From Marsupella aquatica (taxonomy: Eukaryota; Plantae; Marchantiophyta): a stretch of 64,000 nt of DNA. Below, piece by piece: positions 24,869 to 56,286 of this stretch (position 1 is its first letter; each line of letters opens with the position of its first letter). A program made the translations under genes and the position numbers. The stretch lies in NCBI GenBank assembly GCA_973895155.1, contig OZ316891.1, positions 26,405,972 through 26,469,971 on the forward strand, read 5' to 3'. The notes under the pieces were generated by a model that saw only the letters and a list, made by a program, of their open reading frames with translations, was not told the origin of the DNA and searched no databases.

Positions 24869-25194
24869 CACTATACACACGCACTCAGCACCCTGTCATT
24901 TTATTATGCAAGTGAAAAATACACTTCCTGTTAAGGATTTCACCCCCGACTGTACTTGCCAAAATACGTAATGTTCCAAAAAAACAAAAAAACAAAAAAT
25001 ATAGGTGCCTGAGTCATGTACCTATTCTCAAGTGAATGAGACAAAATTCCTAAATGTTTGAGGGTGTCAACTCCTCCGCTGTCCTCACATGTACTGCCTC
25101 TGCACGTACATCCATGACCATATCAGAGTCCAATCATGTATAGTCATAGACACAGGTGCCAGGTGCGAGACCGGTGTGAGATGTCCTCATCTTA

Positions 25195-25764
25195 CTACCA
25201 CATCAAATACGGATACCAATCCTGTTGTCGATGCCACTCAGCCCTGAGGTACTCAGGCATGTACATTAAGTCATCAAGGTCTAAACCCTGCTCATGCCAT
25301 GGTGGTCTTCGATCCGTGCCTACAAGCAGTGGCAGCAGTGCCCTCCATGGTGCACATGTTGCTACCAAGTCCCTCCACTGGGTACTAATTAGTCTATATT
25401 TGCAGATATCTTGTGCGCCAGACACCACAAGAACCCTCGGCCAGACATGTGTAAGAACTATATCATCTGCCAAATCAGGCAACAAGGAACCACCTACAGC
25501 ATCGTGCTTGTCTAACTCATCTGCTGAAAAGTAAATGTCCTCTTCCGACTGTGCATCCTCATTCACCACAGCATTCACAACACATCCAAGGTCTGCAGGC
25601 ATTATCTCGGATGGAGCTACACTCTGTCTGGTTACCAATCCACACAAGTAAGCCCAAGCAGTAGCCATGCACGATGCAACCCGTAGGAGGACCCTACATA
25701 GGGCCTGACGGTCTGGAAGAGGCAGCATACCCACCAAAGTCTTCAGCCAAACAGAGCCCAGCAA
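25195..25764 (-). CDS. F-box-like cargo ORF
   Basis: LLPDLADDIVLTHVWPRV...ICKYRLISTQWRDLV fits the plant F-box motif; no kelch/LRR domain follows; start codon uncertain. Confidence 0.65.
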   Translation of the reverse strand: MLGSVWLKTLVGMLPLPDRQALCRVLLRVASCMATAWAYLCGLVTRQSVAPSEIMPADLGCVVNAVVNEDAQSEEDIYFSADELDKHDAVGGSLLPDLADDIVLTHVWPRVLVVSGAQDICKYRLISTQWRDLVATCAPWRALLPLLVGTDRRPPWHEQGLDLDDLMYMPEYLRAEWHRQQDWYPYLMW

Positions 25765-25904
25765 GTAGATTCACAGTCACACCCCACGCAGCAGGAAACA
25801 ACAATCACTTCAACTGCGACCAACCATGACAAGATGAGTTAGTTCAAGGATCACATTTATTACAAAATTGTGTTTTATACAAAAATATGAGGGACTCCTA
25901 CTCC

Positions 25905-26753
25905 TCACTCTCTCCCACCTTTGCTAAGCATACATCTCTGCTGAATCTTGGAGGGCCAGGCCTCAAAAATATCAAAGTCCCAAGCATTCTGTCGCTTCCC
26001 TCTAGCTGCTGATTCCAGAAGCCAATCAGGGGAAAGCACCCAAAGATTGTTGTTCATGACAAAATCACGCACTGTTGTCTTAAAGAATTTTCTGCATATT
26101 TTCATGTATGACAGACCTACAACATGAGTGGAGGTTTCTGTTAGACTCTCCTCCACTGTCCCACCTAGCTCAACAACTATAGACTTGTACAGTCTGCACT
26201 TAGTCTCCCCAATTCCTTCTTCTGCAAATACCACACTGAACCCCTTCATAATGGTATTTCTCTCCTTGCCATGCTTATTCAATATAGCATCTGCACGCAT
26301 AGGATGGTGTCCTATGTTGACAACAGGTCCATATTGGACAGAAGCAAAGTTGGGTTTCTCTGCCGCTGCTTCATAGGCTTCCTTTTCAGCCAAAGCCTCT
26401 GCAGTGGCCTCCTCACTCTCCCACAACTCATATTGCTCAGTACTCTGTACACACCTATGTTTAACAGAATCGGTCAGCCAAGAGACTTCAACTACTTTTA
26501 GACCTTGGTTGGTAATGGCAGAATCAATGAAGGACCATGACCACTTGTTCATCACATCCAGCCATGTCCCCGCAACAACATGTGTAGTCTGTGGAGTGAT
26601 GTCCTTGACTTCAGTCCCATGGAACTCTGAGAATCGTTTTTGTACGATTGGCCAACTCACTTGGGTGAACCCATAGTGGCCAGGAATCAAAATGGCTTTG
26701 ATTCCAGCCAACAGAGGCGGGTGGTCAACCTTTGTACGTTTCCTAGAGGCCAT
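25905..26753 (-). CDS. Tandem BRCT-domain cargo protein
   Basis: Two repeats: ITPQTTHVVA...VVEVSWLTDSV and ELGGTVEESLTETSTHVVG...VLSPDWLLESA; N-terminal basic RKRTK. Confidence 0.85.
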   Translation of the reverse strand: MASRKRTKVDHPPLLAGIKAILIPGHYGFTQVSWPIVQKRFSEFHGTEVKDITPQTTHVVAGTWLDVMNKWSWSFIDSAITNQGLKVVEVSWLTDSVKHRCVQSTEQYELWESEEATAEALAEKEAYEAAAEKPNFASVQYGPVVNIGHHPMRADAILNKHGKERNTIMKGFSVVFAEEGIGETKCRLYKSIVVELGGTVEESLTETSTHVVGLSYMKICRKFFKTTVRDFVMNNNLWVLSPDWLLESAARGKRQNAWDFDIFEAWPSKIQQRCMLSKGGRE

Positions 26754-27351
26754 GTACACACGGGCCACCTAATCACTGCAGACCGGAAGATAATGCGTTC
26801 ACCTGATAATCGGAGGGCCCTTAAAATGCTGCGTTTATAACTTGGTCCAGTCCAGTCGTCTGGTGAGTCTCTGCTCCGATTCCAAACGGGAGAAATATTG
26901 GGACAAACGTACTAGACACCTGCAAGCATGCACCTCATAGTTTGAATATGTGCCTTCACAATATTGAAGGTGACAAGTGCAATTGTTTTGTGATGCCACA
27001 TACAGATGTTGTAAATGGGCAGACATTCAATGAGAATACAAAATGTTGGTACACTTTAAGGGAATTCTCGCAAATTAAATAGCCTTGTAACTTATATGCT
27101 CATAATGAGAAGTCCTGATTTAATTTAAGCAGTGTCATGTAAGTCGTGATCAAAATGATTGCAGAGTTAAAAAAGTTCCTAGAAGGCTTAAGGGCAGTTT
27201 TTGAAGGCATGTACCCAGGAACAAGTAATGAACTTAGGGTACTTGTTGCCTAAGCATCCTCTCCTACAGAGGTCCTTCTTCTCAAAATTGGAATGTCTGC
27301 AATCTCCAAGGTATCCACATCAGGTGCACTATGCATGTATATTATTCAGGT

Positions 27352-28032
27352 TCAAAGCCAAGAAATGTGATCTCTCATGGGAGTGTGCAAAGTAGGATCT
27401 ATGGCATGGCGATGACAATAGAAGATCCATCGATCAACACCATGTGCAGAGTGATCATAGATGTGTCTGTCACAAGCATAGCCTTCTGCTTGACGCTCCT
27501 TCAAACAATGAAAGTGCCACATGGTGGGACACCTAACACAGTGGACTATGTCCACCCAGAAATCTTCATCGTGCTGACCACATGCCTTGCACTTATGAAG
27601 TGGGCAAGCTGTGGCAAGATCGGGCAAACATGAAAAACAAAAGAACCTCACACAATATCTGTCAGGGCATTTCCTAACAAGTGGTGGAGCATCAACAGAG
27701 CCCTCATAAGACCCCAACTTCCCACACTGTGCACACTTAGCCTGCTTCTCCAAACAATCAGTGCACATCCAGCCTCCCTGGTGTGCTGACGGGAGGCCCA
27801 CCCCTGGACAGTTGTTTTCTGCAGCAAGGTCAGACTCCGGGTTGAGGTGGAAATGCCTCATGCAAGGGCCCTCACATATGGCTAAGCCACCACCATCGTC
27901 ACAAATGGCACAACAATGAGCTGCCTTCTGGAAAATCTGACTTGCGGAGAAGTTACTACCATCTGGCCCAACTACACCTGTGTTGCTCACCTCTGTCCCC
28001 CGCTTCTTGGCTCGGATTTTAGGGCGTGCCAT
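27352..28032 (-). CDS. EDM2: EDM2-type composite PHD-finger cargo protein (reader module only)
   Basis: CAICDDGG..CEGPCMRHFH, CAQCGKLGS, CPLHKCKAC, CVRCP..HFHCL, IFYCHRHAIDPTLHTPMRDHI; colinear with the EDM2 PHD region as recalled (CAICDNGG..CEGSCLRSFH..CPLHKCSVC..YCQEHEIDEELLTPVRDHV). Confidence 0.85.
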   Translation of the reverse strand: MARPKIRAKKRGTEVSNTGVVGPDGSNFSASQIFQKAAHCCAICDDGGGLAICEGPCMRHFHLNPESDLAAENNCPGVGLPSAHQGGWMCTDCLEKQAKCAQCGKLGSYEGSVDAPPLVRKCPDRYCVRFFCFSCLPDLATACPLHKCKACGQHDEDFWVDIVHCVRCPTMWHFHCLKERQAEGYACDRHIYDHSAHGVDRWIFYCHRHAIDPTLHTPMRDHISWL

Positions 28033-28701
28033 GCCTACGCATGAGATAGATAGTACAATTTAGCAGAGTGCACGGACAATACAATTTAGTGCAGTGTACA
28101 AAAAGTACAGTGTAGCATATAGACTAGAGTGGCAATTGCTACTGCAATGAAATGTTCACACACATGTGCAGAGTAGACATACTTTTTGGTTTGTTGAGCC
28201 CACACTAAAAACTGATCCCCTCGTACAATAGCTCCACCTACACCTCAATTTTGTGGCTATGATTCACCAAAGGAGATCTGCAACAAGATTTAATGCATTT
28301 GAATCACATATAACAGTCGTGACATGTAAAACAGGCATTTTTTGAACAGGATTGGTATCAAGCACTGTGATCAGGGTTGTAATTTATACATCCTAAATAG
28401 GCTATGATAGTGAATGAGACAAATAAGTTAGGCAGAAATCACTTTTTCCAGGTTATCACATGGCCCATTAATTCCAGTCTTTGAAAGGAGACTTTTAAGT
28501 GAGCTTGCTAGCCTCTTAAATTAGGATATTGTACTTAGTGCAGCCATAATAGGATAAGTTATGTACTGTTGACCCTAAACCCTGGACCCAAAATTGGTCA
28601 TAATTCAAAATCTTAAGTAAATATCCTCTCTGTTCAAGTCAAAGTGTTAAGTTATAGGTCAATGGTCTCTGGTTTGTGCATGCGGTGTGACAAGTGGTCC
28701 T

Positions 28702-29151
28702 CTAGAGCGTGTGATCCAAACATGTGTAGACACCAAAGTGACCGGTGGTGGGGTCTGGGAGGGCAGGACAAGTGACATCGCCAGGCACACTGCAGGATGG
28801 CGAGTGGTTCCAGATGATACATTGTGCTCTGTGAAAAAACCGACATCCAAGAGAACGGTCATCCAACTCTAGGCCAGAAGCCCTACAGGCAGGACAGTCA
28901 TATTGGCAACTGTGCACACACCCTTGGGCCCTAATTTGTGGCGGGTCATGTATGAGAGACAGAAATACCAAGGATGTTGGGAAGGGTGGAGAAGCAGGTA
29001 CAGGCCGGCTGTAGTTGTTCCTGGCAACAACTGGGTACTCAAAGTACCATGCAGACTGGGCTGGAAGGATCCCAAGTCTGACATACTCAAGGCGCAACAT
29101 CTCTGCCTTGCGTGCAAGCCGCACATGTTCAGCGTTGCGGGTCCTCACCAT
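28702..29151 (-). CDS. Cys/His-rich ORF of unknown function
   Basis: ATG start, 149 aa, CVHSC..DCPAC...C..FH...C..WNH; same strand and spacing as the other cargo ORFs. Confidence 0.45.
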   Translation of the reverse strand: MVRTRNAEHVRLARKAEMLRLEYVRLGILPAQSAWYFEYPVVARNNYSRPVPASPPFPTSLVFLSLIHDPPQIRAQGCVHSCQYDCPACRASGLELDDRSLGCRFFHRAQCIIWNHSPSCSVPGDVTCPALPDPTTGHFGVYTCLDHTL

Positions 29152-30534
29152 AAGTGTTGCTTTTGTGGAGATGTCGTGTGTTCACGTCCTCTGATAAGCA
29201 CCTTCGATCAGCAAGGTGAGCAGGAGCTGTACTTGCCTCACCAACAGCAACCAACCTTAAATTATCAGTTCCCACTCACTGTGTCATTCCATTGGTTCCA
29301 GCTAGGGGTCACAGTGTAAACATAGCATGAAACACTCCTAATCAACTTGCTTACAAACTACAATATCCAGAAAGAGTGAAAGTCTCACCCTCCAGTGAGC
29401 AGCAGAGAGGTAGTTCACTAGATGTGTTGATGTGCAGTTAAACCTCCACTATTGCTTACTTCTGGTGTATGCTGCTCAGAAGAAGACATATTAGTAGCAG
29501 CAAATTGCAAATAATGGCCATAAGCAAACTGTGAGAGTTTGCAGAATGCTACGACAAATCCATCACAGCAGTGCTCCACAGGAATGAAACCAAGCAAAAT
29601 TTGGTGACCTCGGCCAATGACAAGGCCAATGTAGTGAACAATCCTTGACCGATCAGGATATGGATTGGAATTACAATTAGTCAGCTCTTCTTCTTTGTTT
29701 TCTAACTCTGGGGGAAATGAGCATGACCAGGGAATTCTTTGAGAAATAGAAGTGCACAGGGAAAATGAAATTGGCTCATTCAGCTGCGCAAGACCGGCCA
29801 TTGCAGCAAACTTGGACAGTTGTTCCGCAATACATAAAATACCCTGACTTACATGCAATCGATACAATCTGCTTCTGTTGGCTGTCCTATAGCTCACGGT
29901 AGTGCCGTTGGGATAGGGTAAGTAAATATTGCCATAGCTGAAGCACATTGAGCTTGCAGCAAGAAGTGAAGGAGCATGGCCAAAAGCAGAAAAGACAGAC
30001 AGGTTTTACAAGAAGAAACTAACAACCGCCAATCTGCTCAAATCCGCTGCATAGATCAAACCCTCCAAACTACACAGCCCTCCTTTGAAAACAATCCAAT
30101 GTGCTTTGGCTGGTGGATGACAAGGACTGGGAGAAGAGGAAACGTCTACACAATCAATCCCAATGACGGGACACAGAGACCAGGCACAGAGAGGAGTTGT
30201 GCTTAGACAAAAACCACAAATTGTAGCATGGGCGCCATAGCATTGGGCGGCAATGGGAAGAATTACATCAAATGAGTGGACAGAGAATTAATGAACAGTC
30301 CGGTTATAGGCAAACAGCGACTGATGCCCTGATGCAATGAAACACGCATTGACATAGCGGAGGGACATAAAAACTACATAAGCCAACTTACTGACCTTTT
30401 AAGGCCCACAATTTCAAGGGGAGGGACAAAGACAGCAATAACAGACGCAGAGACAAAGCTGTACTCTGTCAATTGAGTAGGCAAGTGGGTGGGTGAAGAT
30501 CAACAACCAATGTAGCAGCGCAACCAGAGTAGCA

Positions 30535-30650
30535 ACAAAGAAGCAGGTTGCCCTCAATCTCCTATTTTTCAAGCAGCTCGTGCTCGCGGTCAATCTCCTA
30601 TTCTGCAAGCAGCTCACGCTCGTCCCTCTTGTTCTGCAAGCAGGTCATTC
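30535..30650. repeat. Degenerate 33-bp tandem repeat, about 3 copies
   Basis: AAGCAGCTC.TGCTCGCGGTCAATCTCCTATT units. Confidence 0.6.
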
Positions 30651-33394
30651 TTGTCGGCGATGGTGCAAGCTGTCCTCCTAAACTCTGACACTCAAAATGA
30701 AAAGACCAAGCACCTCCAATCTGTTTGATCCCTTCCGCAAGCAGCCGAGCGGCAGACGATAATGTAGGGATCAAGAACCAAGTGCCAGGCGGACATTGCA
30801 CAAAATGAGGACCAGGGGCAGAGACAAAATCTACCGAAATCTATCGAAATCTACTTCTTGGGGTCCAGCCCACGGATGGACATCATGCAAGGTGGTCAAA
30901 AATGGTAAGTGCAATTGTTGGAGAGCTGTACTCGCGATTACTAACGGTGCATCCACAAAACGCGTCATCAAGTTGTCAGTGCGGCCACAACAATTTTGAC
31001 AGTCTCAGGATCACAGGTCCACAAACAAGTTGCAAATGAAGACACACAACGTCCAGGAGGGAAAGTCCGCAACACTAACCCTTTGTAAAGCCCCCGAGCT
31101 TACCTTCTAGCTGCCGACGCAAAGAGAAAACCTACTCGGACACTGAAGCAACCCTAAACTCAAAGTCTCACCTTAGCGCAACAACTCCTGGATTGGATTC
31201 AGCTAGCTCAGGCTCAATGAAGCATGTCGCCTCGGGCTCTCCGGATCCTCCCAAGGCAGCAAACAAGTTAGGGTCCACGGTCCTTGTACCTTCACCACAC
31301 CGTTGTGTCCTTCCCAATGCCTCCTCTGTAGTTGCGTCTTGTCTGCAACTCTACAGCTCCCCGTGTTGCTCTGCCGCACTTAGTTATATTCCAACGCCCG
31401 ATCGTGACCAAAAAGAGTTTTCTCCTGCTGGACAGCACTAGGCATTTATTCAATCTCTTGATCACGCGTAAGCAGCTACAGGTATGAATCACTCAGTTGG
31501 CAGCTCAATACGCTTACAGCAAGAGGGCGCAATAGGTAGAAGCTCGCGCTACCTAGACCAGCACAAGGACAAAGCATTAACATTGAAACTGTACCATGGA
31601 GCTGGAGAAAACCACAGAGTAATTGAAGCCTAACAATACCCTTCTTAGCTCCCGACTCCAAACTCTCGGCTCCCAGTTTGCAAGAACAAGCACTATGAAA
31701 ATATGGATTCCCACATTGACTGTGTCCGCAGAACAGATGCAACCCGCATGCAACTTCACCAGCTCAACGGCAGCTTGACAACTGAAGGACCTCCCAATGA
31801 GCCTCACGGCCTCCCGATGCTCGTTATGGGTGCAGCAAAAGGGTCTATACCACAACTGTGACCGAGATTGTCACCCAAAACCTTGAAGAAACCCCAACCT
31901 CCGACTCCTCAAACTCCGACAAGCTCCTCACGAACGTTGCAGTAGCCACAACCTTCTTCGCCCTACCAGCCAAAAACTAAATGTCCCTAAAGGAGATCGA
32001 GCAGGAATGCAGGTCTATGAGTAGACTGCAAGCGCAAGGTTAGATCACTGCAACTGCCTGAACACTGCTCCTCGAGAGCATAAACAAGCACATAACGCGC
32101 GGGAAGTTCACTCCGCAATGGTCGCAAAAAGTGGGCAACACTGAAAGGAAAACCCTACGTAAAACCCCGAACACTCCACCCCTCACGTTCTAAGTTCAAT
32201 GACAATGGCGAAAACTCCAAAGAGACTCCCAAAGTGAAGTTTAGTGCCTGAAACCGAATTAGGGGAAGCCACTCAGCCTTACCGTTTGAGTGAGCCGTTG
32301 AGTGTCACCCAAAGTGGGACAAAGCTACAAAGTGTTACTGCATGGCCAACTTAGGCAATGAATGGTCATATTTGCACATACATGGTCGGTAGTGACATTT
32401 TATTGCACGCTGTAATCAGGATTAAGGTTGCCCAACATTATATCCGATCCTAAAATGCAATATTCCCGGTGCAAGAATGTGACCTAGCTCTAATGTATGA
32501 AAAAGGACCGGTACAAATCTACCTTTGTGCATCTTGACCTTTTATAGATGGATTTAGTAATGGCCAAGAATATCTTGACCATCCCTCCATGGTCCAACCT
32601 CCATGAACCCCACTTCATTAAACCCAAAACCTTTTTGGTCACAAATAAGGAAATTTAATGAGTTATGCCCCTTGCTATCACCCTCTTTATAGATTTATTT
32701 TTTTGTTTGAAATTTTACATTTATTCCGCGTGAACCCCACGGATGGGGGAACCAGTAGGCCAAATGGCATCATAAAACCTCAACACCCAAAGGAGGCAAT
32801 AATAAAGAGTTACTCAACCAGGGTCATCAGATCAGGCAAAGATTGCGAAGCCGTTCTTCTAGTGGTCCATGCAACAAGTAACAACTAGGGAATAAGCACT
32901 AGAAGGCGCAGTAGGTCAGCATAGTGTAAGTGTAAAGTGTCAAAGCATTGTCTAGTACTAAATTAATCCACCTGATTAGTAAGAAGGGGGTGTATACTGT
33001 AATGGGAAAAAGAAAAAAAAACCAAGGCATGAGCAAGGGCCACCAAGAGTGGTGCAGCTATAAGCTATAGGGATTGAACACAATGCGGGGGGGGCAGTGG
33101 CACTATGTATGAGGAAATCATGGGAGTATCGGTGTCAAATGAGTCGACAAAACTCCCAGATAGCCACACAGTATAAATCAATCTCATAGAAGGCTGCCAT
33201 CAATGGAGGAAACAATTTGACACGACCCACATCTGAGAGTGTGAATTCGCTCGATCTCCAGCAGTTCTTTGGCACTCGATAGACGTCGGTGCTTTCGGCT
33301 CAAAGATGAAGGAGAATTACCCCTCCTCAACATAGAGTGAACATTACCCATGATGTGCTAGACTATTCACCCTTCACAAAGTAGCAAGGTTACT

Positions 33395-33551
33395 TCTCAT
33401 AGTCTTTTAGTGAACCATAAAACTCTCATAGTCTTTTCTAGTCTTCAACAAAACCGGTGCAATGGGTGCGAGTCGTTTTAAGTATGGAAAAAGGACTTAG
33501 TGGGCATAGTCCTATAAGGTATGGTCTAAATTGCCCCGGTTTCTACTAGTG
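33395..33551. repeat. Right subterminal repeats and TIR of CACTA
   Basis: TAGTCTTT, GAGTCGTTT, AAGGACT; ends CCCCGGTTTCTACTAGTG. Confidence 0.85.
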
Positions 33552-34800
33552 TTACCATATAGGTATGGTCGAAAATATACCACAACCCATATCATAGCAA
33601 GTAGCTCTCCTTCATAGGATGAGTAGTTGTTTTTGCCTTGTTGTTATTGTGTAAAGCATAGGCAACAACATACTCTGGTTCACCATCATCCTGCTGTCCT
33701 AGAATGGCTCCAAGACCAATAGCACTCCAATCAATGTGAAGAATGAAAGGGATCCTGAAATTGGGATGCCAAAGAACTGGGTGTGTAGTCAGTACTGCTT
33801 TGATCTTTTCAAATGCAGTCTGTCGTTCTGCGGTCCAACACCATGGGGTTTCCTTTTTCAATAATTGATTTAGAGGGCTTGCAATGGTACTGAAATTCTC
33901 AACATGTGTGCGGTAGTAGTTACACAGACCTAGAAAGATACATAGTTTGTTGACATCTATAGGTGTCTTCATGTTGTTGATAGCCAGGACCTTGGCCTCC
34001 TCTGGCATGAGTCCATCTGGAATCACTTGGTGTCCCAAATAGATCACAGTGTTCACCCTAAATTCGCATTTCTTGGGATGATATTTGAGATTAGCTTTTC
34101 TGAGCCTTTTGAACAGATCCTCCAAATCATCCATGTGCTGGTCAAATGAAGGGCTGTGCACTACAACATCATCAATGTAACATTTTATGTGTGCTGCACC
34201 TTCCTTCACTATATCTATGACCTTCTGAAAGAAGATGGCTGCATTCACTATGCAAAATGGCAGGCATAGCCATTCCCACAACTTGTCACTGCCATGGAAT
34301 GCAGACTTCTTTCTGTCCTTCTTTGCCACAATGATTTGGATGAACCCTTGCCGTAGATCTAAAATAGAGAAATATCGAGACTTTTCTAGCCCATCAAAGA
34401 TCTCTTCTGGTGTGGGGACATGATATCTATCCAACTGAGTTACCAGATTGAGTGCCCGATAATCCCCAGACATCCTCGTCTCTGACCATAGACCGCTGCT
34501 ATCCTTCAGATTTGCTTGCATGATTGTGGGAGCAGCAAAAGGGGAACTTGAAGGTCTGATGAGACCTGCCTCATGTAGTTCCTTGCATCTGGCATCCACC
34601 AACTCCCACTCATGCTGGCTTAGTCAATGCTGCTTCCAAAATATCGGTATCTCCTTAGTCAATGGAATTGTGAATTCCATTATGTTGCACTTCCCTAAAT
34701 CCTTCATAGAGAATGCAAAGCAATCTTTGTACTCATTGATGAGTTTCTTCATTTGGAGCTTCTGGGTTTGCCGTTAGTTGTTCTCCCATGGTCCACTCAA
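33552..34800 (-). pseudogene. pol: Gypsy RT and RNase H N-terminal half of the DNMT element
   Basis: DYRALN, LDLRQGF, YIDDVVV, YLGH, FLGLCNYY, LHIDWSAIGLGAILGQ. Confidence 0.95.
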
Positions 34801-34889
34801 AATTCTCAGCTGAAGGGGGTGGCTCCTCTTTTGATTCGTCTTCCTCTATATTTGTAGAAGAGTTGTGGCTAAAAGCACGTGGTTGAAGA

Positions 34890-35975
34890 TTAACTGGGAC
34901 CTCTCCCCCCAAACCATTGGTTTGAAACCTGTGGAAGATGTAAATCTATGGGAGAAAGTGTCTCAATAGCAGCTACCGCCTTCGTGGTATGTTGCGCGTT
35001 GGTGAGCATTTGAAAAGCCAAGCAGGAGGACAGTACCCATGAAAATCCTGTGAGGTCAAGCGCTTGGCCTAGCAATTTGTTGCGTTGATGTTTTGTAAGA
35101 CTAGGGTGCAGAGTGCTCCCTGTCTGAAATCCCATAGCGCGCTCGCGCTCCTCTAGGGATGGTGGCTGCCACTGTTGTCTGGCCTGTCGGAATACCAGCC
35201 CTAGACCATCTCCCCAAAATGCAAAGGAGCCCGAGAAGGATAGTAGTATGGGCCATACTGCCCATGGTGTGCCTATGCGGTTGGCTGGAAAGAACGGTGC
35301 ATGTTTAGTCTGTACCACTGATCGAGGCAGACTGCCAGGATCCAAAATTTGTTGTAATTGTTGTGAAGGATCTGGCTTAGTCTCCAACAGAACCAACTTA
35401 AGAATATTATGTGGTGCTAGGTTAGTCCACAAATTGCGTAAACAATGGGCATAAGACCCGCATTGAGCTGCATCAATGAGGAATGGATTGCTCAACAAGT
35501 GTTGAACAACAGCAAAATCTTTCAACACATCAGTCTGAGAGTCAAACTGTGTAGGTGCATTTTCCAAGATGTAACCCACACATGGGTTGCGTTGTTGTAT
35601 CCAACCAAGCACCCGAAGTAGATCCTTGAACAACATTGAATGGTTATCTCGTAAACCTCCACCTGTGCCTACTACAAAAAATCCTTGGCACTCCCAGCCA
35701 GCAACTACCAAATGTATAGGGCCTAGTAACTGGATGTGGCGTTGTTGGATAAGTTTGATATCCGGAGGAAGAAATGTGAGAGCAGGCTCCCATGCTGTGG
35801 TAGAAAAGAGTTGGAAATACTGTTTACTTAGGGTGGCAAGATGTTGAGGCAGCAATAAGCGTGCGGCAACATCTGTGTCATAGTACACATACTTGTGTAT
35901 CCGTAATCCATACTTGAGAGCGGCCTCAAGCCCAGTAGCTAGTCCCCCAAATAATTCCACAAATGTGATGCCTTT
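34890..35975 (-). CDS. C5 DNA cytosine methyltransferase domain (DNMT3-like, copy A) inside gypsy pol
   Basis: Motif I VELFGGLATG, IV AGWECQGF, VI ILENA, VIII AHCLRNLWTN (copy B AYRLRNLWTN), IX EERERAMGF, X RNKLLGQALD, in canonical order; more than 350 open codons. Confidence 0.9.
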   Translation of the reverse strand, partial: KGITFVELFGGLATGLEAALKYGLRIHKYVYYDTDVAARLLLPQHLATLSKQYFQLFSTTAWEPALTFLPPDIKLIQQRHIQLLGPIHLVVAGWECQGFFVVGTGGGLRDNHSMLFKDLLRVLGWIQQRNPCVGYILENAPTQFDSQTDVLKDFAVVQHLLSNPFLIDAAQCGSYAHCLRNLWTNLAPHNILKLVLLETKPDPSQQLQQILDPGSLPRSVVQTKHAPFFPANRIGTPWAVWPILLSFSGSFAFWGDGLGLVFRQARQQWQPPSLEERERAMGFQTGSTLHPSLTKHQRNKLLGQALDLTGFSWVLSSCLAFQMLTNAQHTTKAVAAIETLSPIDLHLPQVSNQWFGGRGPS

Positions 35976-37661
35976 TGTGATGCCTAGCCAAGAATCATTA
36001 GGCCAGTTTAAATAGTAAAATCAGGAGTGTACCCTAGGAAACACCTTAGTATAGTAACAAAAACAGGGAAAATATAAACAATTAAGGGTAACTATGGAAC
36101 CCGAGCCGAGGCTGAAAGTAAGGACACCAGGGGAGGGAACACGATTAGGGTTAGGGCACGCTAAGTACCGGCGGCTATGGGTAACCAACGGGAAGGAAGA
36201 CCAGCCAGGGGGGTAAGGACCGATCGCAAGGAATGACGATTCATTTGCAAGCACAAGCCAAGCGGACGACTACGGGAGGCCAACTACTGTCCGCTGCTCA
36301 GGCAAGCACTCAGGGTGGAAGCAGATACCGACAATCAACTCAAGAAGAGTATGAGCAACATCAATCAAGTTGCTCATTTTTGGGGATACCTGTTAGAACG
36401 GGCAACTGAGTACATTGGGACATACGAGGACAAAGAATTGGAGAGAGCGGCTCGAGAACGGTAGGAGCTTGCTCGGCTATGGGAGCTGCAAAAGTCTGCC
36501 TTCTTAGGAGGAGAACTCATTACAGCTAAATTCTTGTGGACGCCTACTGCCGACAAACTCGATGATCTGCTGTTTTGTGAGGACAGAATAGTCGGCATTC
36601 GGGGGGCCATCAACCGCTGTAACGACATACATTGGGAGTTGAAGGGTAGCACGGAGGGGTGGACAAAGGCAACCGTGCTAGGAGAAACATCCACAGTAGC
36701 CGCTATGAAGAGGAAAGGGAATAACAATGAAGAAGCCACCCCTGCGAAAAGAATGAGGTCGGCAGCACCCAGGAAACCAACAGAGCAGGGAAGCAGGAGG
36801 CAAGCGGAAGCCAAAGAGGAGGAGGTCGACCCCGTCAATGCCATTCCAACAAGAGATGACACCTAGAAAGGCTGGGCGGCAACCCTCCCCGAGGAGGTGC
36901 AATTACACTTTGCATGGGAAGAGGATGCATGCTTTACGGCTATGCAGACTCGGAAATACCAGGGCTTCATGGCCGGATCCGGCTTGGAAGCCTTCGTAAA
37001 GTTACCATGGCTGAAGCCGGAGGTGTCAGGTTCAGACTTACTAGAATTCATGGGATCATGGGAGCCGAGACCAATTCCATAAGGGTGTATGGGAAGGATT
37101 TCTATCTCACTCCTTGGGTGATTGCCAAAGTGTTTGGCTTGCCGATGGGCAATAAGACCAAAGTAGATACCAGGAAGACCTTGCCAGACAAGGAGTTCCG
37201 GTCGTTTCCAGGGCCATCAACAAAGAATGGCTTCTTCCAAAACACCTGCATAAACCCGCACATAGGAGAAATGATCAATTTCTTGCGGGTGACCATGCAT
37301 TGCAACTTGCCGAGGGCAGAGATCGGCAAGGTATAGGTCTATCTGGCGGAGAGGCCAGACCCAAGCTGAGACTACAACGGGTACCTCCTCACCCAACTAA
37401 AGAAGATCTTGAAGGAGGAATAGCTGGTGATCGGCATGGGAAGCGTGTCCCGACTTGGTTATCATATGCCGCTGTTGTGCCGGTATGCCCGAAGTCAGAT
37501 ATTCGCCCCGGTACTGCCCCTGCAGGCAAGAGCACCAAAGGAGGTTATGGAACCGAGGCTAGCAATAGAGAAACCAACCCAGCCCGATAGTCCTACAATC
37601 GAGCAGGTGTTTAGGCCGAGGAAGGAGGACTTGCTGATGCAGCAACCAGGCATGCACCACA
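35976..37661 (+). repeat. 5' LTR, internally deleted
   Basis: 36521-37656 matches 49382-50178, then jumps via ATGCA to the LTR end ATGCACCACA (seen at 53149-53158), followed by the PBS. Confidence 0.85.
36351..37656 (+). pseudogene. N-terminal part of the LTR-encoded accessory ORF
   Basis: ATG at 36351 in frame with 36534 and 36897; GLEAFVKLPW..LLEFMGSW..RVYGKDFYLT..IAKVFGLP, homologous to 62788-63200. Confidence 0.7.
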
Positions 37662-37665
37662 TTTT

Positions 37666-37683
37666 TGGCGCTAGATGGAGGGG
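37666..37683 (+). promoter_or_regulatory. Primer binding site, tRNA-Asn type
   Basis: TGGCGCTAGATGGAGGGG, one mismatch from the complement of the plant tRNA-Asn 3' end as recalled (TGGCGCTAGAAGGAGGGG). Confidence 0.8.
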
Positions 37684-37899
37684 GCATTTCTTAAGCCGTG
37701 AGATATGAAGTTAGGGAGGAAACATAGGTAATGACTGAAACTACGCCGAGGGAGGAAAGAGCGATTCAATGGGAGAGAGCTCGTCTGCAGCAGCTCGCCG
37801 GGTGGCATGATACACAGCGACTGAGAGGGGCAGAAAGAGCTAGTCACTCCGTAACTCAAAAGTGGCGTCGAAGAAGACATACCAAAAGAAGAGTCGGTA

Positions 37900-40727
37900 A
37901 GGAGGAGTGAGTCCCCAACCGACATGGGGGAACCGGAGGCACGGCCAGAAGAGAGGCCTGGGACCAGACTGAGCCAATGGTCGCGCATTCATTACAAGGC
38001 ATTTCATGGAAGAGGAGATGAGGATCCGGATGAATGGTTGGATGACTTCGAAGGAACCGCTGCAGCAAATGGAGAATCAGCCATCAAGATGTAGATTCTT
38101 CCTGGCCTGTTCAAGGGTGAGGCTAGGCCCTAGTACAGAGCATTGGATCATGTGGAAGATCAAGCCATCTGGCATACCTTCAAATCATTATTTGTAAAGG
38201 AGTTTTGACCCATTGGAACCTCAGAGCTAGCAGTGCTGAAGTTGGGACGACTTCGGTTCAAGGAGAACAAATCCTTCAGAAAGTTCTTGCAACGCTTCCA
38301 AAAGCTGGTAAGACGTACAAAGACCAATGCATCTAAAGGTATGCAACTTCAATGGTTGGTAAATACTTTGCCATAAAAGATGAGTTTTGCAATTAGGAAG
38401 GAGAACCCAGAGACTTTAGCCGAGGCAATTAGAGATATTCAATTGTACATTAATGCGGACATCACAAGCCGGAAGAAATAGCTTAAGTCTGAGAGTTCCT
38501 CATCGGAGGAAGGATCACCCCATAAGAAAAAAGATAAGAAAAAGAAACATTCTAAGAAGTCAAGAAGTGATAACTCAAGCTCGGATAGTGGAAGTAGCAA
38601 GAGTGAGTCATCTTCTAGTTCCGAAGAAGAAAAATCTCGGAAAAAGAAGGGTAGAAGGAGGGGGAAGTTGAAAGTCAAGCTAGAAGCTAAAACACCAGAT
38701 AACATCGTAGCTCTTACCAAGCAGCTTAAGGCTATAATAGCATAGGTAAAGCCAAAGAAGAAGGTAGTACTCGAGGATAGCTCTATATGGTGTGCCTTAT
38801 GTTATAAAACCGGACACCATAAAGATGCATGTCCTAAACTTAATACTAGTCATGTTCGGCATGTGGCTGAGGTCAGACCATGTCAGGGAGAAGTAGAGTA
38901 CTTTCTAGGGGATGCCGCTGATAGTGTTTTTGGCATCAGTGAGACTGGAGCACGAGACCTATCCAACCGACCTACATCTCTCTGGTCAGGATTATGGAAC
39001 AATCCGGGAGAGATGTATCCTCGGATTATTCAAAATCCGTCAGTACCTCCTAGGCCGAATGTGCAAAGATTTGCGGCATGCTATAATTGTGGTCAACCTG
39101 GCCATTTTGCTAGAGAATGCTCGAATGCACGCAAACAAGGTGATGGACAACCAGCTCAGCTATGTATGGGATGCCGACAGGAGGGTCACATGCTAGGACA
39201 ATATTCTTCTTGGTTGGCAGGACTTGCCGTAAATCATAAGCTCTTGCCGGTCAAGGTCTTGCCTCCGTGTACTACCCCAGGAGGAGTTCAAATCAACCAC
39301 ATTGAACTCGGATGGCAAGTGGATGCCGAGGCAGAGTTTGGACCATCTGATGATGAGGCCGAGGCCCTATCAACATTTTCAGAAGAGGATTTGGATCATG
39401 ATTGCTACCGGGTCTCTACTCAATCCACCAGAAGGAAGGAAAGGTGGGATGGGCTGGCCAAAAATAAAGGGAAGGTTAAAGAAGAAAAGATCGACTCTTC
39501 GTCAACATCAACAGAAGGAGAAGGAAGGGCGCCGACAACACAGGTAAGCCATGAGCCCACCAATGAGCTCAATCCTTCACAGGACAGCGACTTCAATCGA
39601 GACCACCCTAAGTTGTTTTACCCCTATATTACGGCTAGTGTTAAGGAACAACTACGAGAATTGGAAACCCTGGAGAATACCAAAGCCATAGCCAAAGATG
39701 TGAAACGAGCAAAAGCGTTGTTTGCTTCGGAGGATCCAGGGCTGTGGAAACTAGCGTGGAAAAACAGGCCAAAGCCAATATAGAGACACCGGCAGAAGAG
39801 AAACCGATAGTCCCCTACGACCTGGTTAAAGATGTACTAGAATCTAGAGTCTCGGCAATAGTAGGTCAGCTGTTGAAAAATAGCCCTTATTTCTGGAAGC
39901 AGTTAAGGAAGGCCATTCTCGGCAAGCCGAGATTACCCAAGGTAGCAACCAGATCTGACGTGCTGATGATAGAAGAAGATCAAGGAGCCCCAGCATTACC
40001 ATTAATGATTCAAGGAGAAATATTACTAAGGGTACCCATTGATGGAGGATCAAGGGTATGTATTATGATTGATTCAATAGCAAAAGGATGGGGACTAACG
40101 CCGAAGATGACTGGAAGAGTGTTGAACATGGCCAATGGGTATCAGGTCATTCCCACGGGAGTGTTAACCGGCATCAAGACTGAGATAGGAGGGATCTTCT
40201 TTAGCATTAACTATGTAGTAATGAAGCCGGTAAAACCTACATCATTTCGGCTATTGATTGGCAAGCCATGGTTGTATCTAGCCAAGGTAATAGAAGATTG
40301 GGGGAAGAAGGAGTTCACTTTTGGAACCCCCGCTATCACGGTATCTTGGGACACCAAGGATGACCGTAGGAGAAGCATCAGGGAGGTAGACGGGTATGAC
40401 AGTGGACTGGAGTCAGCAGATGAGGTACGTTGGCTAGAATGCCTCACTAACCTGACCGCAGAAAGTATCTTTGGACCAAAAGTATCTCCCAGCGAACTAT
40501 GGCAAGAACCTATGGAGAGTGACTTGGAGGAATGTGAAGACGAAACCGAGGATTGCTTTGCCATAGAGTCCACCTTTTTAGCTTCAATTCCGGAGGAAGC
40601 ACAAGAAGTGGACCAGTTGGATGAAATGGCTAAGTGGGGAGCTGCACCCGAGCCAGTGGATTTTCCTCAGGCGTTGTGGCAGAGCCGGCAGGATCCACAA
40701 TGCCGTCTATCATCGGCAATAAATTAA
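37900..40727 (+). pseudogene. gag: gag (zinc knuckles) and aspartic protease
   Basis: FHGRGDEDPDEWLDDF, CALCYKTGHHKDAC, CYNCGQPGHFAREC, PIDGGSRV, LLIGKPWL. Confidence 0.85.
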
Positions 40728-41039
40728 ATACCAAGGAATTGGCATACAAGCCGATTACGAGGGCAGAACAAATTGAGGCCCTATTAGAAGCTGGAAGAGC
40801 ACAACGACCTGACCCTCAGGAGGCAGGAATGGATGAGATACACAGAAACAAGCCAGAGCCGAGGCCGGAAGGGAAGCTGACCACCAATTCAAAACCGAAT
40901 AGACCGGCAAGGGGACACTCTACGGATAACCAGGGAGAAACCAACTCGGCTAGTACCGTCAAGATTCCAGTTTATGGAGGTATGAGACTAGAGAGGTTGG
41001 AGGCCGAATTGGACCCAAACTTGAAGAAGCAGATGAATT

Positions 41040-42918
41040 TGATCCAAGCACGGCAATATCAAAAGCTCGACTTAGGAGAAGGAAGGGAACTGAACTTGGG
41101 ACAGGACCTAGCACCTGAGCTTGAGAAAAAAATCAGTGAATTACTGATTGAATTTTAGGATGTGTTCGCATGGAGTCACCAAGACCTGAAGGGAGTAGAC
41201 CCAAAATTAGGAGAACATTGAATTGATCTCATGTTAGGGGCCAAATCATTTCGACAACCAATTCGAAGAATGAACCCTAAGTATTCCCTGATGGTCAAAA
41301 CTGAAATTGACAAACTAGTGGAAGCCGGATTCATCACTCCAGTCCTGCATTCAGACTGGGTGTCTCCAATTGTGATAGTTCCCAAGAAAGCTGGACCCGA
41401 TGGTAAACCCAAGATCCGAGTTTGTTAGGATTACAGGAAGTTGAATGAGGCTACGTTAAAGGACCATTTTCCTTTACCCTTTACTGATATGGTACTAGAC
41501 ATGGTAGCCAGTCATGAATTATACTCATTCATGGATGGGTACTCTGGTTATAACCAAATCAGGATTAGGCAGGAGGACCAAATCAAGGCGGCCTTCATCA
41601 CGGAATGGGGGATCTATGTCTTCAATCGTATGTCGTTTGGACTCTGTACCGCACCAGCTATGTTCCAGCAATTAATGGTGAACATTTTCCATGACTAGTT
41701 GAGAAAGTTCATGGAAATCTTCATTGATGACTTTGCAGTATTTGGGAAAGCATTGAAACATGCTAAATACCTAAGGAAGACCTTCATGAGATGCAGAGAG
41801 GTAGGTCTCAAGTTACACCCAGATAAATGTTTCTTTGGAGAACAGAGGGTGTGCTGCTAGGGCACAAGTATCGAAGAAGGGCATTGAGATTGACAAGGGT
41901 AAGCTAGCAGTATGGCTTGATATCATGCAACCTAAAAACATAAAGGATGTGAGATCCTTCTTGGGTTGCATTGGGTATTATCGCCAATTTATCAAGGATT
42001 TTGCCAAGCTAGCTTTACCATTAACCAACATGCTCAAGCAAGCGCAGACTTTGAACCCACAGCAGAAAGAGTAACAGCTATGGTGGAATTAAAGCAAAAG
42101 TTAGTGGAGGCCCCAGTCATGATAGCACCAGACTGGAACAAGGATTTTCATGTCTTTGTAGATGTCTCAGGCTTCTGTATCGGCTCAGTACTAAGTCAAT
42201 TAGATGAGAAAGGAAGGGACCATCCCATATACTTTGCAAGCCGCCAGCTTGCCGATGCCGAACAAAACTACTCCACCACAAAAAGAGAAGCTTTAGGAGT
42301 CATTTATTCATGTAAATTTTTTTGGCATTATTTGCTAGGGTACAAAGTAATCTTTCATACTGATCATGAAAGTTTGAAGTACCTAGTAAATAAGCCGGAC
42401 CTTACAGGCAGGGTAGCAAGATGGATTTTGTTATTACAGGAATTTGACTATGAGCTAAAAATCAAGTCGGGAAAGCTACACGCCAATGCCGACTTCTTTT
42501 CAAGGATGATCTAGGTGAACCTGCCACAGATTGCATTGATGACCAATTTCCCGACAAAAAGCTATTCGTTATGGAAATAGCTGATACATGGTACCCTGAG
42601 ATTTTGCAATTTCTCAACACGTCCAGATTACAGCCAGGGCTAACCCGAGAACAAGCCGTAGTCTTTCTATGGAAGGTCAGACAGTATCAATACATTAAGG
42701 GTGTGCTACACAGGTATGGAATCAGCGGCACGATTCAAAGGTGTTTGGAGAAGGGGAGGTAAAACGAGTCTTACGGGCTATGCATGGGGAGGAGGCCGGC
42801 GGACATTTTTCTCTAGTAACCATGTCTAAGAAGATATTAAATGCCGGTTACTGGTGGCCCACCTTGCACAAAGATGTCTATCAGTTTATCAAACAATACA
42901 ATCCTTGTCAATGAGCGG
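41040..42918 (+). pseudogene. pol: RT, RNase H and start of integrase
   Basis: WVSPIVIVPKK, KDHFPLPF, MDGYSGYNQI, FIDDF, VDVSGFCIG, TDHESLKYL, ARWILLLQEFD, H..AGGHF; cut at 42919. Confidence 0.93.
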
Positions 42919-44094
42919 TGTCGTGATTTTCTCTTAAGTTATAAAAAATTGTTTGTTTTAATATGTTATAGATTATATAAGTAATTTAGTAGTTAGATTA
43001 TTAAATTTAAACTTTATTAAACTTCTTTAGCTATATTAACGGACTATAGAAGTTCCACCAATGCATATGAGTAGTTCCACCAACTACAATAATATTCACC
43101 AACGCATAGTGGTTCTACCAACGCATAGTAGGTCCACCAGTGCATAGTAGTTCTACCAACGCACGTAGGTCCACCAACGCATAGTAGGTCCACCAACGCA
43201 TAGTAGGTCCACGAACGCATAGTAGTTCCACGAACGCATGGTAGTTCCACCTACTAAAAGTAGTTTCACCAACTATGAATAGTACTAGCACACTCTTAGG
43301 TATTAGATGTTTGACACTTGGCCTTTATCCAAGTGTTTGGGCTTGATCCATGCCCTCTTGGTGTGCACTATAAATAAAGTGGCGAGGGGCACTCTTCCCT
43401 CATTCCACAGTGTTTATCATTCAAGGTTATGAAGCTCTTTTGTGCCTTGAACATAGTAGTGGGGCGTCCTTTGGCCCGGATAGCAAACGAATGAGTGGTA
43501 GATTTATAGATGGGACCTTAGGGAATAAGGTTTCTTTGGGAATATAGGGGTGGGGCGTCCTTTGGCCCGGATAGCAAAGGAATAGGAGAGTCATCATGAA
43601 TCCAGGAGAGAGAGTTATCCCTGATCTTCCCCTTCGTAATCCGTTTTTTATTAGAGTCCATCTTTTAGATAAACCATCTATGAGGCAACATCTAACCTAT
43701 CATTTTGGAGCTCAATTTGCAACTGCTGTTATGGTTTCTAATGAGCCAATAATATACCCAGTGGTGTCGTATCGAGAGGAGTGGGAGTGCATCATCTTTG
43801 TCCTTTATTGAAGTCATGGATCTGAATAGGAGTCCGAATGATATTCCTGTTTCATTTTCTCTTGGAGATATTAGGATCATATGTCGTAAGAAAACTAATT
43901 TTTGTGATGTGTTGGTCCGCAAGTATGGTGAAATAGGGTTTAACAGTATTTTAGTTTCACCTGAACCTTTCTTAATACCCACTACCCTTGTTACTAGAAT
44001 TATCATTTTGATTTTAGTGTAGAACTTATAAGCATGCAAGGTTAACTTCAAAAGAGCCAACATGCTCTTGCCAGAAAACACGGTCACCCGGACA
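42919..44094 (+). repeat. 5' LTR
   Basis: TGTCGTG...CCCGGACA; CTATAAATAAA TATA box near 43368; PBS follows after 4 nt. Confidence 0.85.
43045..43275 (+). repeat. ~19-bp tandem repeat in LTR U3
   Basis: TAGTAGGTCCACCAACGCA and variants, about 11 degenerate copies. Confidence 0.85.
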
Positions 44095-44098
44095 TAAG

Positions 44099-44116
44099 TG
44101 GCGATCATACTGGGGA
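44099..44116 (+). promoter_or_regulatory. Primer binding site, probably tRNA-Arg
   Basis: TGGCGATCATACTGGGGA directly after the LTR. Confidence 0.75.
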
Positions 44117-44240
44117 ACCGCTGGATTTGGAAGTTAGCTTGTGCATGTTTGAGTTCGAATGAATGAAGAGAGATATGGTTTTGGAACTTTGAGTTCTTAA
44201 CTTGTTTATATTATTAAGTCAAGAGGGAAGAATTACAATC

Positions 44241-46805
44241 ATGGGAACTGAGATGAATCCAACTGACATGGAGAGGTTTTCATCCTTGATTGCTGCTTAC
44301 TTACATGGAATGAAGGAGAAGGAGATGGAGGAGAACAAGAAGAAGGAGTTGCTTGGTAGGACCACGAAGTACCTACACTCGATTCTTACCAAGCAAGGAG
44401 AATTTGATGGGCGAAATGTAACCAAGTATCTCAAGGGGTACTGGATGGAGGCTACAATTCATAAGATTGATGCAGAAGTTGCAGTCAAGGAGTTTGTATC
44501 TTTAGTAGAACCTGAACTCAAGGGAATTATTACTACCTTGATAGATGGAGCTACTGGGGAGAAAGCATGGAAGGTCTTTGAGTTGAAGATGAAAGAAGAA
44601 TTTCAGCTTGAAGATCCAGATCGGGTTACTCAAGCATCTTTCCTTGATTGGGTGGCCGATAGAAGCAAGAAGTTGGGACCTCAAGAACTGATAAGGGAAT
44701 TTACGAAGAAGTTCAATCAGCTTCCTGAGATTGGTTCTGAAGTTATCAAGGTACAGAAGGCTACTTTACTTATCCGAGCTACTAATGAGAAGCTTCAAGA
44801 CGAGTTGGAGCTTGCTCTGGAATTGATGAACCCAAGTCGTGGAGCCAGTCCACCAACTTGGGAGGAGATTGAGATTGCTGTGCTTAGGATCAGCCAAAAG
44901 CATAGAAGAAAAAAACTGAGTCATGAAGGTGCTCTACATGCGGTTGCACCTGTGACTTCTATGAGGAGAATGGAGAAAATAGAGTCAACAACTGGTAGGG
45001 GTGAGAAAAGCATGGACAAAATGGATGAGTTGTCTGAACTCATGAAAAATCTTACCATTCTTGCCACCCAAGTCTTCGAGCAGATGGGAGGAGGTGCATC
45101 AAGACCAGTGTCAAGAGGTGGTCCAGGAGCCGGGAGTTCCATTGGCGAAGCAAGGAGTTGGAATTGTATTTGGTATGATAGTAAGGAGCACTCAAGGCGT
45201 GAATGTGGGGAGCTTTCTGTTGCTCTGAGATAGAGAATAGTCAAGTTCATTGATCATGATGGCATAAGAAAGCTTGCTTATCATGATTTAGGAGAGCTTA
45301 TTCCAGTAAACACAAACAAGGGCGGTATGAAGGTGTTGGTGGAGAGAAGAATGACTGAACATCATACTTCAGCCATTGCAGCAACTTTTGGAGATCAGGA
45401 TGAGCATGAAGCAGATGTTTACACCCTCTTTGGGAGTTCTTCGTCAACAGAGATAGACAAGAAGAGACTAGCAGAGTTTGTAAGGAGGAAGTCAGGTTGG
45501 AGTGATCCAGTGTTGATCTCTTCTTTCACTGCAGAAGTGGGATCTCTATGGGATTCTATGGTAGAGGAGAAACGAAAGTCGTCGGAACCTTTGGAAGAAC
45601 GTGCCAAAGGAAAACAAAAGGTTGAGCCTGGACCCTCTATTTTGCAGCCATCATCAAGAGTCCCAACAAGGAAGAGTGTTTGATTTGAAGATAGAGGAAA
45701 TACAACAAAGGAGCCTACTTCGACTCCTTCATCCTCAAAGGAGATGGAAGTGGTAAAAAAAGAGAAGGTGGAAAAGAAAGGACCTGGTTGGGTCCTTGGA
45801 AGAGATGTTGAGCAGCACATTGCGTATGATCAAGTTGCTGAGAAGTTTTGGAAAGCGGAGGTGAGCGGAGTCACCAATGAAGAGTTTTTTGCTTGCATGA
45901 ACTCCAAGGCTCAAGATGCATTACTTGCAAAGGTGAAACGAAAACGATTTTACAAGGAAGGACCTCATGCCTTGGGAATGGAGGTTTTTTCTGATGTTGA
46001 TGAAGATGGAGAAGGTTCAATTGTTTCTCAAGCCAGTGTGGAGTGTGAAGTGTATCAAGTGAATGCGGAGAAGATCCCTAGACCACAGATGCTAGGGTCT
46101 TCAACAAAGGAAGTTCCTGAACCAAAGATGCCAGGAGTTGAGGTATTGGAGATGTGGAAACCATTGGCGAAAGCAACAACAGGATTTGCAGTGACCCAGG
46201 ATATGACAAAAATTAGTCGTGAAGAGGTGCTCAAGGCCTCACAAAGTGTGTGGGTCATGTGTGCTTCAGCTATGAAGAATTTTGATTCAGGAGACGACAA
46301 GGAGTCCATCTTGGAGCCATTTTGGGCAAGAACTTGCTCGGTTGTGGAGGTAGAGCTTGTAGGAATGGAGGGCAAAGCTCGAGCATTGATTGACACAGGA
46401 TCTGAGGTGAATCTAATGTCAAGAAGCATCTATGATCTTGGGCAATGGATGATTGATTGTGATACTCAATGGTCTGTCAACTCAATCAATCGTTCAAAGA
46501 ATATGCTTTGGGGAGGATGCCCTGGAGTATCAGTGAAGGTTGGCCATGTGATAGAACCAACTAACATCTTTGTGCATGATAGCTTGCCCTATGATCTCAT
46601 TCTAGGGCAGCCTTACATTACTCAAGCTCGAATGGAGTACAAGGTCCTACCAGATGGCACTCATATGGCAAAGGTAAGGAGTCGGGATGAATTGCGGGTT
46701 ATCCAATTTCCTGTAGTGAAACCTGGACATTGGAGGAATCGGAAGGAGTTGAGAGGACCTGAACCCAAGGAGGGAAATGAGGATTTCCGGAAGGCGTCTC
46801 GTTAA
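44241..46805 (+). pseudogene. gag: gag-protease ORF with two premature stops
   Basis: ORFs 44202, 45327 and 45744 share one frame; FDGRNVTKYL, CIWYDSKEHSRREC, ALIDTGSEVN, LILGQPY. Confidence 0.88.
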
Positions 46806-56284: not shown

Positions 56285-56286
56285 AT

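Follow-up and report, generated by a model that had tools for sequence, protein, structure and literature searches.

Cytosine methylation is the main tool of plant hosts against transposons, and a transposon that keeps a working writer of this mark therefore raises the question of who gains from it. We analysed a stretch of 64,000 nucleotides from the liverwort Marsupella aquatica (GenBank assembly GCA_973895155.1, contig OZ316891.1, positions 26,405,972 to 26,469,971 of the forward strand; hereafter the window), in which a preliminary description, made from the letters and their open reading frames, had placed a DNMT3-like cytosine methyltransferase (DNMT) domain between the protease and the reverse transcriptase (RT) of a Gypsy retrotransposon. 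Profile, structure and locus comparisons support the main points of this description, among them its proposed kinship to charophyte elements, and correct several details. The full order of the element is protease, DNMT3-type domain, RT, RNase H, integrase, PHD finger and split terminal repeats. The copy in the window is dead, twice interrupted and itself incapable of methylating. The DNMT between protease and RT is no one-off: it is a trait of a family.

The domain occupies a 329-codon open stretch on the minus strand (34983–35969), within which the motifs of C5 cytosine methyltransferases follow in linear order, as first described: ELFGG starts at 35957, GWECQ at 35699, ENAP at 35564, xLRNLW at 35444, EERERAMGF at 35153 and KLLGQA at 35078. 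It is intronless and the motif order is not rearranged. Against the Pfam model DNA_methylase (PF00145), the check that the preliminary description had proposed, the domain scores 12.5 bits (E 0.099), below the curated cut-off of 22 bits, and the Pfam scan of the window returned no DNA_methylase match at E ≤ 0.01. By the terms of the preliminary description such a miss would count as refutation, but it is overturned because more sensitive profile, structure and fold searches rank DNMT3A first. A single-sequence search of solved structures placed DNMT3A at the top (E 9.7e-8). A family profile built from 65 sequences matched DNMT3A at 2.5e-23 and DNMT3B at 2.7e-19 among solved structures, followed by DRM-type entries at 2.8e-13 and weaker and by M.HhaI at 1.9e-9. 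An AlphaFold2 model of the domain has a mean pLDDT of 94.7, and all 32 rows listed by Foldseek with this model are DNMT3A, B or C (best E 1.9e-18, TM-score 0.82 by target). ESM Atlas clusters it with DNA_methylase at 0.96 (a single evidence source without alignment). One relative, P0055, scores 36.5 bits with the Pfam model, and 29 of the 53 relatives of similar length carry a precomputed DNA_methylase label. By its predicted structure the domain is a DNMT3-like fold.

Motif I FxG, the catalytic Cys of motif IV and the EN of motif VI are all present in the window copy. Motif VIII, reported as RxRxxWxN, reads CxRxxWxN in the window copy, with Cys at 35442–35444 in place of the first Arg, which most relatives keep. 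Glu precedes the catalytic Cys (E-C, not P-C). We collected database relatives (53 of similar length and 78 longer) and at least 166 clusters at 50% identity (E ≤ 1e-30). At aligned positions in the 131 database relatives, the Cys is kept in 119 of 119, the Glu in 121 of 124 and the two Arg of motif VIII in 122 and 121 of 130. The best 150 representatives of the 50%-identity clusters, mostly 30–40% identical to the query and sharing 24 proteins with the 131-relative set, keep the Cys in 149/149, the Glu in 150/150 and the two Arg in 145/148 and 146/148.

Two or more Gypsy-type elements, nested as one block, are inserted at the DNMT start (35976–53158, plus strand; 17,183 bases, TG start and CA end) and flanked by a CCTTT target-site duplication (35971–35975 and 53159–53163). 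The frames agree on either side of the block, and the protease joins the DNMT in frame past one stop (53176–53178), as had been claimed. Contigs from the sequencing runs, compared over window positions 34001–54000, join 35970 directly to 53159 in three of four runs (longest short side 23–44 letters); an uninterrupted, empty-site form therefore exists. Upstream of the joint, the protease region noted earlier is present but split by a frameshift near 53765. Its decayed N-terminal part, with the Gag-protease linker (53769–54557, minus strand; DTG motif near 53885), matches the relative P0056 at 28% over 270 residues with five stops (tblastn), and Pfam Asp_protease_2 matches 53706–54023 (E 2.5e-6). 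After the frameshift, the C-terminal protease and the protease-DNMT linker follow (53164–53763, minus strand; 49% identical to P0056 residues 775–866).

On the other side of the domain, the short linker and RT lie where the preliminary description put them, but the reading frame does not carry through: the DNMT frame ends at a stop at 34890, and the DNMT-RT linker and RT N-terminus (34624–34982, minus strand) contain frame changes and more stops at 34776 and 34626. DNMT and RT of this copy do not share a reading frame. RT (YIDD at 34179) and the first part of RNase H occupy 33552–34623 on the minus strand, with a frameshift near 33635 (Pfam RVT_1, E 5.7e-21; RT_RNaseH_2, E 8.1e-18).

The bounds first given to the element, 33552–35975, do not hold. 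A CACTA DNA transposon (16997–33551, minus strand) with matching terminal inverted repeats and the Pfam domains Transposase_21, DUF4218 and DUF4216 lies inside RNase H, between the two copies of a 3-base TTA duplication (16994–16996 and 33552–33554), and RNase H takes up again from 16995. The alignment of L082, an intact relative used as query, breaks and resumes at the same residue, 444, on either side of the CACTA element. The end of RNase H and a DDE integrase (H2C2, rve) follow at 15517–16996 on the minus strand, with five stops (Pfam rve, E 1.1e-10), and a frameshifted PHD finger lies at the integrase C-terminus (15274–15412, minus strand). The intact PHD finger of L082 matches those of CHD4, PHF12, UHRF1, KDM5 (PHD1) and PHF21A, which are readers of unmodified histone H3 tails. 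Next come a purine tract (15216–15223, minus strand) at the start of split repeat B1, B1 itself (15090–15219, minus strand; ending CACGACA, 85% identical to B2 over 131 bases), A2 (14476–15087, minus strand) and B2 (14346–14475, minus strand), whose CA is the 3' end of the element. A2 starts with TGTCATG two bases past B1; with A1 absent from the window, its assignment rests on the junction motif and on how the repeats are arranged in relatives. Neither gag proper nor the 5' A repeat was found within the window, and another element seems to start near 54758.

The 3' end of the element is inserted in the RNase H of a plus-strand element that is likely a sister of the same family (9589–14345; TGTCAC start, gag, internal deletion, RT end, RNase H). 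Beside it, at 8971–9588 on the plus strand, lies a partial second DNMT copy belonging to the same subfamily (88% identity in DNA, 80% in protein), with the motif VIII Arg kept. Three DNMT-Gypsy family members thus seem nested across 8971–14345, the DNMT fragment being cut at 9589 by the sister and the sister at 14345 by the element described here. This second copy, the integrase, the PHD finger and the split repeats all go beyond the preliminary description.

The family was examined in 81 related loci, comprising L082 and 80 metagenome loci; the latter are the best 80 of 545 confirmed stretches, and several are one site in different samples. Named relatives come from Calypogeia fissa, two Sphagnum species, Klebsormidium nitens, Haematococcus lacustris and Monoraphidium neglectum, and among relatives of similar length the ten best share 42–51% identity with the window DNMT. 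The 80 metagenome loci are called peat-moss type here because P0055, which represents them, has 85% identity over 123 residues with a named protein of Sphagnum. A protease lies upstream of the DNMT in 71 of the 81 loci. The end of the DNMT and the start of RT are both visible in 60 loci; the two share a frame in 45 of these, the linker is fully open in 9, and its stops fall at scattered places. P0055 is a continuous protein of DNMT, RT and RNase H; Calypogeia P0009 (protease and DNMT) and Sphagnum P0049 share the order of the window copy. The domain had been described as no standard feature of land-plant lineages of long terminal repeat (LTR) elements, which holds only for the literature searched: named relatives do occur in Calypogeia and Sphagnum.

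These loci bear on the possibility that the window preserves a host DNMT3 fragment captured in a single copy, or a chance join produced by nested insertions. That the copy is heavily nested and broken, with a domain that Pfam does not call, would suit such an accident. The recurrence of the same order in the 71 loci, in P0009 and in P0049 refutes a one-off insertion, the empty-site joint in three runs argues against a chance join, and the domain, flanked by protease and RT, lacks introns and has no Pfam match to DUF3444, the C-terminal mark of host DNMT3 genes. We regard this explanation as extremely improbable.

A second order, RT-RNase H-DNMT-integrase-PHD, is found in 96 of the 150 cluster representatives, against 11 with the window order and 43 unplaced. 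Haematococcus has this second order, and by their sequences the members with the DNMT after RNase H appear as the larger sister group, which includes the chlorophyte elements. A further variant is seen in the L082 group, whose gag-protease-DNMT proteins end 62–142 residues past the DNMT; P0057–P0072 end at about the position of the L082 stop. L082, the only member of the group with DNA, has a stop in frame with RT (L082:3489–3497, TAG CAA TCA; one case). We take this context to fit that of readthrough stops in plant viruses, and stop-codon readthrough between gag-protease-DNMT and RT is possible in L082. A programmed frameshift at the G run that follows the DNMT was rejected as a family rule on the single frame of 45 of the 60 loci and the scatter of the linker stops; in the window subfamily it may still apply.

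L082 is a whole retroelement in a cyanobacterial (Synechococcales) bin, with no second copy in that genome. Whole or partial DNMT-Gypsy elements were also seen in Obscuribacterales and Minisyncoccia records (P0011 and P0114), and all three are likely mis-binned eukaryotic contigs. A bacterial source was rejected, L082 being the only true family member among 27 genome loci and the other 26 weak matches; a viral source was rejected on the single weak viral locus found (E 2e-5).

Trees place the window copy within this family. In an RT tree of 40 rows (quick search, LG+G4), it groups with the five peat-moss-type rows with support 100; a branch with support 97 separates the 29 RT-first rows from the rest. 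The DNMT trees (105 rows, quick search; a hand-picked 36 of those, careful search) join the two window copies as sister to Calypogeia plus the peat-moss type, with support 100/100. These trees hold no host DNMT3 and no true root and therefore give neither donor nor event order. Placing the window copies and the Klebsormidium group in one clade was rejected (approximately unbiased test, p 0.0004): the window DNMT is homologous to that of the Klebsormidium elements and has the same position, but on these unrooted trees without host DNMT3 the two are not sisters. The position of the domain requires two changes on the DNMT tree because P0076, with the DNMT before RT, sits in the after-RNase-H group; this placement suggests a second move of the domain.

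The ratio of nonsynonymous to synonymous substitution rates (dN/dS), a check that had been proposed, is 0.09–0.21 for the DNMT in eight pairs of peat-moss-type sequences and 0.12–0.33 for RT in four pairs; it is saturated between the window and its relatives and in most deeper pairs. The DNMT is under purifying selection in the relatives.

The ends of these elements combine integrase-type termini with DIRS-type repeats. The window holds a 3' B-A-B, which is also present in 20 of the 80 metagenome loci, 9 of the 80 having the full A...B-A-B. The relatives begin with TG and end with CA, and an exact 4-base duplication flanks five of the eight full-length loci with a placeable start; a ninth locus lacks the TG start. 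Of 82 loci scanned for the B|A junction pattern, 21 have it; the spacer is 2 bases long in 24 of 28 matches, and the window has one match. A G run stands at the place of the purine tract in seven peat-moss-type loci (all those with a listed B1 start). The repeats are split, and the canonical LTR layout of two complete LTRs with a tRNA primer site does not apply: TGG, the start of a tRNA primer site, follows the 5' A repeat in 0 of 10 relatives. As to self-priming, the stretch following A matches the interior of A over 12 bases in one of three loci and over 8 in the others, which is not persuasive. Permuted insertions with B before the 5' A, which could arise if a circle carried two equal junctions, were absent among the loci listed. 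Single-B copies may be assembly collapse, because L013 and L041 share flanks yet differ in B. A DIRS or tyrosine-recombinase class was rejected on the rve integrase and the 4-base duplications.

Comparisons with published systems refer to the accessible portions of the cited sources. KnitGypsy-Dnmt3, reported from K. nitens only, is a Gypsy element with a DNMT3, DIRS-like A-coding-B-A-B repeats and purifying selection (de Mendoza et al. 2018, PMC5890265). The family described here shares with it the Gypsy domains, an intronless, non-rearranged DNMT3-related domain in pol, the purifying selection and the repeat layout (PMC5890265). Protein P0047 of K. nitens is homologous to the window DNMT (33%, E 4.1e-31); its relative P0122, 71% identical to it, has the order Gag-protease-DNMT, and P0047, P0040, P0041 and P0122 end a few residues past the DNMT. 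Unlike Klebsormidium, which has P-C at motif IV, the window copy has E-C, and unlike KnitGypsy-Dnmt3 of an alga it resides in a land plant, with its DNMT closest on the tree to Calypogeia and the peat-moss type. SymbioDIRS-Dnmt3 of Symbiodinium likewise has a DNMT3 in Pol, two domain orders per group and A...B-A-B repeats, but it uses a tyrosine recombinase (PMC5890265), whereas the window element encodes a DDE integrase, and 4-base duplications flank the TG...CA ends of its relatives. Its domains methylated CG in yeast and were the only retro-DNMT shown active in that study (PMC5890265).

Host DNMT3 genes (PpDNMT3a/b; Yaari et al. 2019, PMC6453930) share the DNMT3-type catalytic domain with linear motif order but carry a C-terminal DUF3444 (PMC6453930), which the window domain, inside a retroelement, lacks. 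EpiLTRs/DAM-LTRs are Gypsy elements that also pair a DNA methyltransferase with a histone-reader domain; unlike the window element, they have a cytosine enzyme that is sister to DNMT4, together with an adenine methylase and a chromodomain, and their authors set this enzyme apart from the streptophyte Gypsy-DNMT3 (bioRxiv 10.64898/2026.05.21.726589). In the accessible text of two sources, streptophyte retro-DNMT3 is cited as already reported with no land plants named (bioRxiv 10.64898/2026.05.21.726589; PMC12344493); supplementary trees may include some. The word methyltransferase does not occur in the accessible text of PMC9946827 and PMC6317226, and PHD is also absent from the main text of PMC6317226. 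Troyka was rejected as a relative on its CG ends, 3-base duplications and restriction to animals (PMC12440569; PMC6890710). No published report of the element in land plants was found in the literature searched, a search that reached few subscription journals. The window element is a new member of a kind known from one green alga, and extends it as the third land-plant branch of the family.

What might the enzyme do? The explanation we favour is that in intact relatives it methylates the element's own new complementary DNA (cDNA), which we hold to be an even chance. The near-invariant catalytic residues, the purifying selection in relatives and the place of the domain within the polyprotein speak for it. 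The intact relatives would make the methyltransferase within their polyprotein. Polyprotein domains of retroelements end up in the particle where cDNA is made, and a domain inside the polyprotein would therefore be in that virus-like particle, packaged with RT and integrase. It would methylate cDNA cytosines before or during integration, probably at CG, a context proposed because SymbioDIRS-Dnmt3 was shown to methylate CG. The PHD finger would then steer integration to chromatin with an unmodified H3 tail, and the new copy would arrive pre-marked like old host heterochromatin. Where B meets A inside the repeats, the sequence CA, two bases, TG may serve as a template or cut site that gives the integrase two ends, a role proposed because there is no tRNA primer site after the 5' repeat.

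Several results weigh against this self-methylation. The observed/expected CpG ratio is 0.20–0.47 in the element and 0.32–0.45 in five DNMT-free neighbours, and 0.78 in the intact L082 frame; depletion of CpG and CWG was rejected as a signature of self-methylation, being equal to that of the neighbours. The dN/dS between the two decayed window copies is 0.42. The searches turned up relatives no closer than about 55%, and a single open DNMT-RT frame is for this subfamily only a possibility. E-C at motif IV, which may affect activity, recurs in 89 of 149 representatives, with Pro in 46 of 149. Lastly, the Klebsormidium domain gave no methylation in yeast, a result its authors called inconclusive (PMC5890265).

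The last two points would also fit a domain kept for nucleic-acid binding or structure, or acting on RNA, with no DNA methyltransferase activity in vivo: KnitGypsy-Dnmt3 was inactive in yeast (PMC5890265), and motif IV reads E-C. We think this quite unlikely, the catalytic Cys, the Glu and both Arg being near-invariant over 150 clusters so far diverged from the query.

Alternatively, the methyltransferase could act after integration, on the insertion and its flanks, held there by the integrase-PHD complex and setting the chromatin of the site. The kinship of the PHD finger to the H3-tail readers named above, which parallels the ADD domain of animal DNMT3, speaks for this, as do the DNMT adjoining the integrase in the 96 representatives with the second order and, in one case, the three family members nested in one another in the window. 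A place between protease and RT gives post-integration action no tie to the integrase, and in the L082 group the DNMT closes the gag-protease frame ahead of the in-frame stop. On balance we find this explanation unlikely.

The enzyme might instead act in trans on other elements or on the host genome, suppressing competitors or damping its own copy number, a possibility raised in PMC5890265. In line with this, the summed contig depth, which is not a copy number, is much lower in the DNMT region than in the nested Gypsy block. A benefit shared in trans would be hard to maintain under the purifying selection observed, and in Physcomitrium, where the family may or may not occur, host enzymes account for 93–97% of methylation per context (PMC6453930, accessible text). 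We consider trans action very unlikely.

A broader scenario built on the cDNA-methylation proposal is offered tentatively, as a possibility that we would not favour as a whole. It would see an old Gypsy clade spread across the green lineage (chlorophytes, charophytes and at least three land-plant branches) with its own DNMT3 writer and H3-tail reader. The DNMT would have moved between two places in Pol at least twice, with a Gag-level dose achieved by stop readthrough in one subgroup. Replication would be free of a tRNA primer and proceed through a junction-bearing intermediate, with CA-nn-TG cut by the integrase, and copies would be inserted already methylated.

The window contains other elements. 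The CACTA element (16997–33551, minus strand) is a DNA transposon with chromatin-reader cargo: upstream of its transposase lie NSD-like PHD fingers (27352–28059) and BRCT domains (25905–26768), and, judged by eye, a possible F-box-like stretch (25195–25770). The block at 35976–53158 holds a very abundant Gypsy (contig depth about 10,000–40,000, run X1) around a much rarer one (about 300–600, 44700–49300); its internal repeats (36521–37656 and 49382–50178) stop short of the block ends. A young Copia (55953–62659, plus strand) has 332-base LTRs that are 99% identical and gag and pol in one frame, with stops at 58911–58913 and 60837–60839; its best named match is in Riccia fluitans (59% over 90% of the length), near-full-length flowering-plant matches being about 39–46% identical. 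An older Copia (434–6260, minus strand) has LTRs 93% identical. We also saw, by eye, RT fragments resembling long interspersed nuclear elements (6380–7356, plus strand), and tandem arrays at 43052–43292 (19-base unit) and 57116–57335 (9-base unit).

To the Klebsormidium precedent the window adds the full anatomy of an element across two large insertions, together with the scale of the family and its two domain orders. Annotation misses the domain because many copies fall under the Pfam cut-off, and the 50%-identity clusters hold many natural unbroken domains. The split repeats with an integrase-type junction pose a separate open problem in how ends are copied. The alga in which the kind was described is hard to test, and mosses and liverworts bring the family near tractable bryophyte systems. 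If the methyltransferase works, a writer of the host's own mark would have been kept by a transposon for hundreds of millions of years, and the question becomes which of the two benefits.

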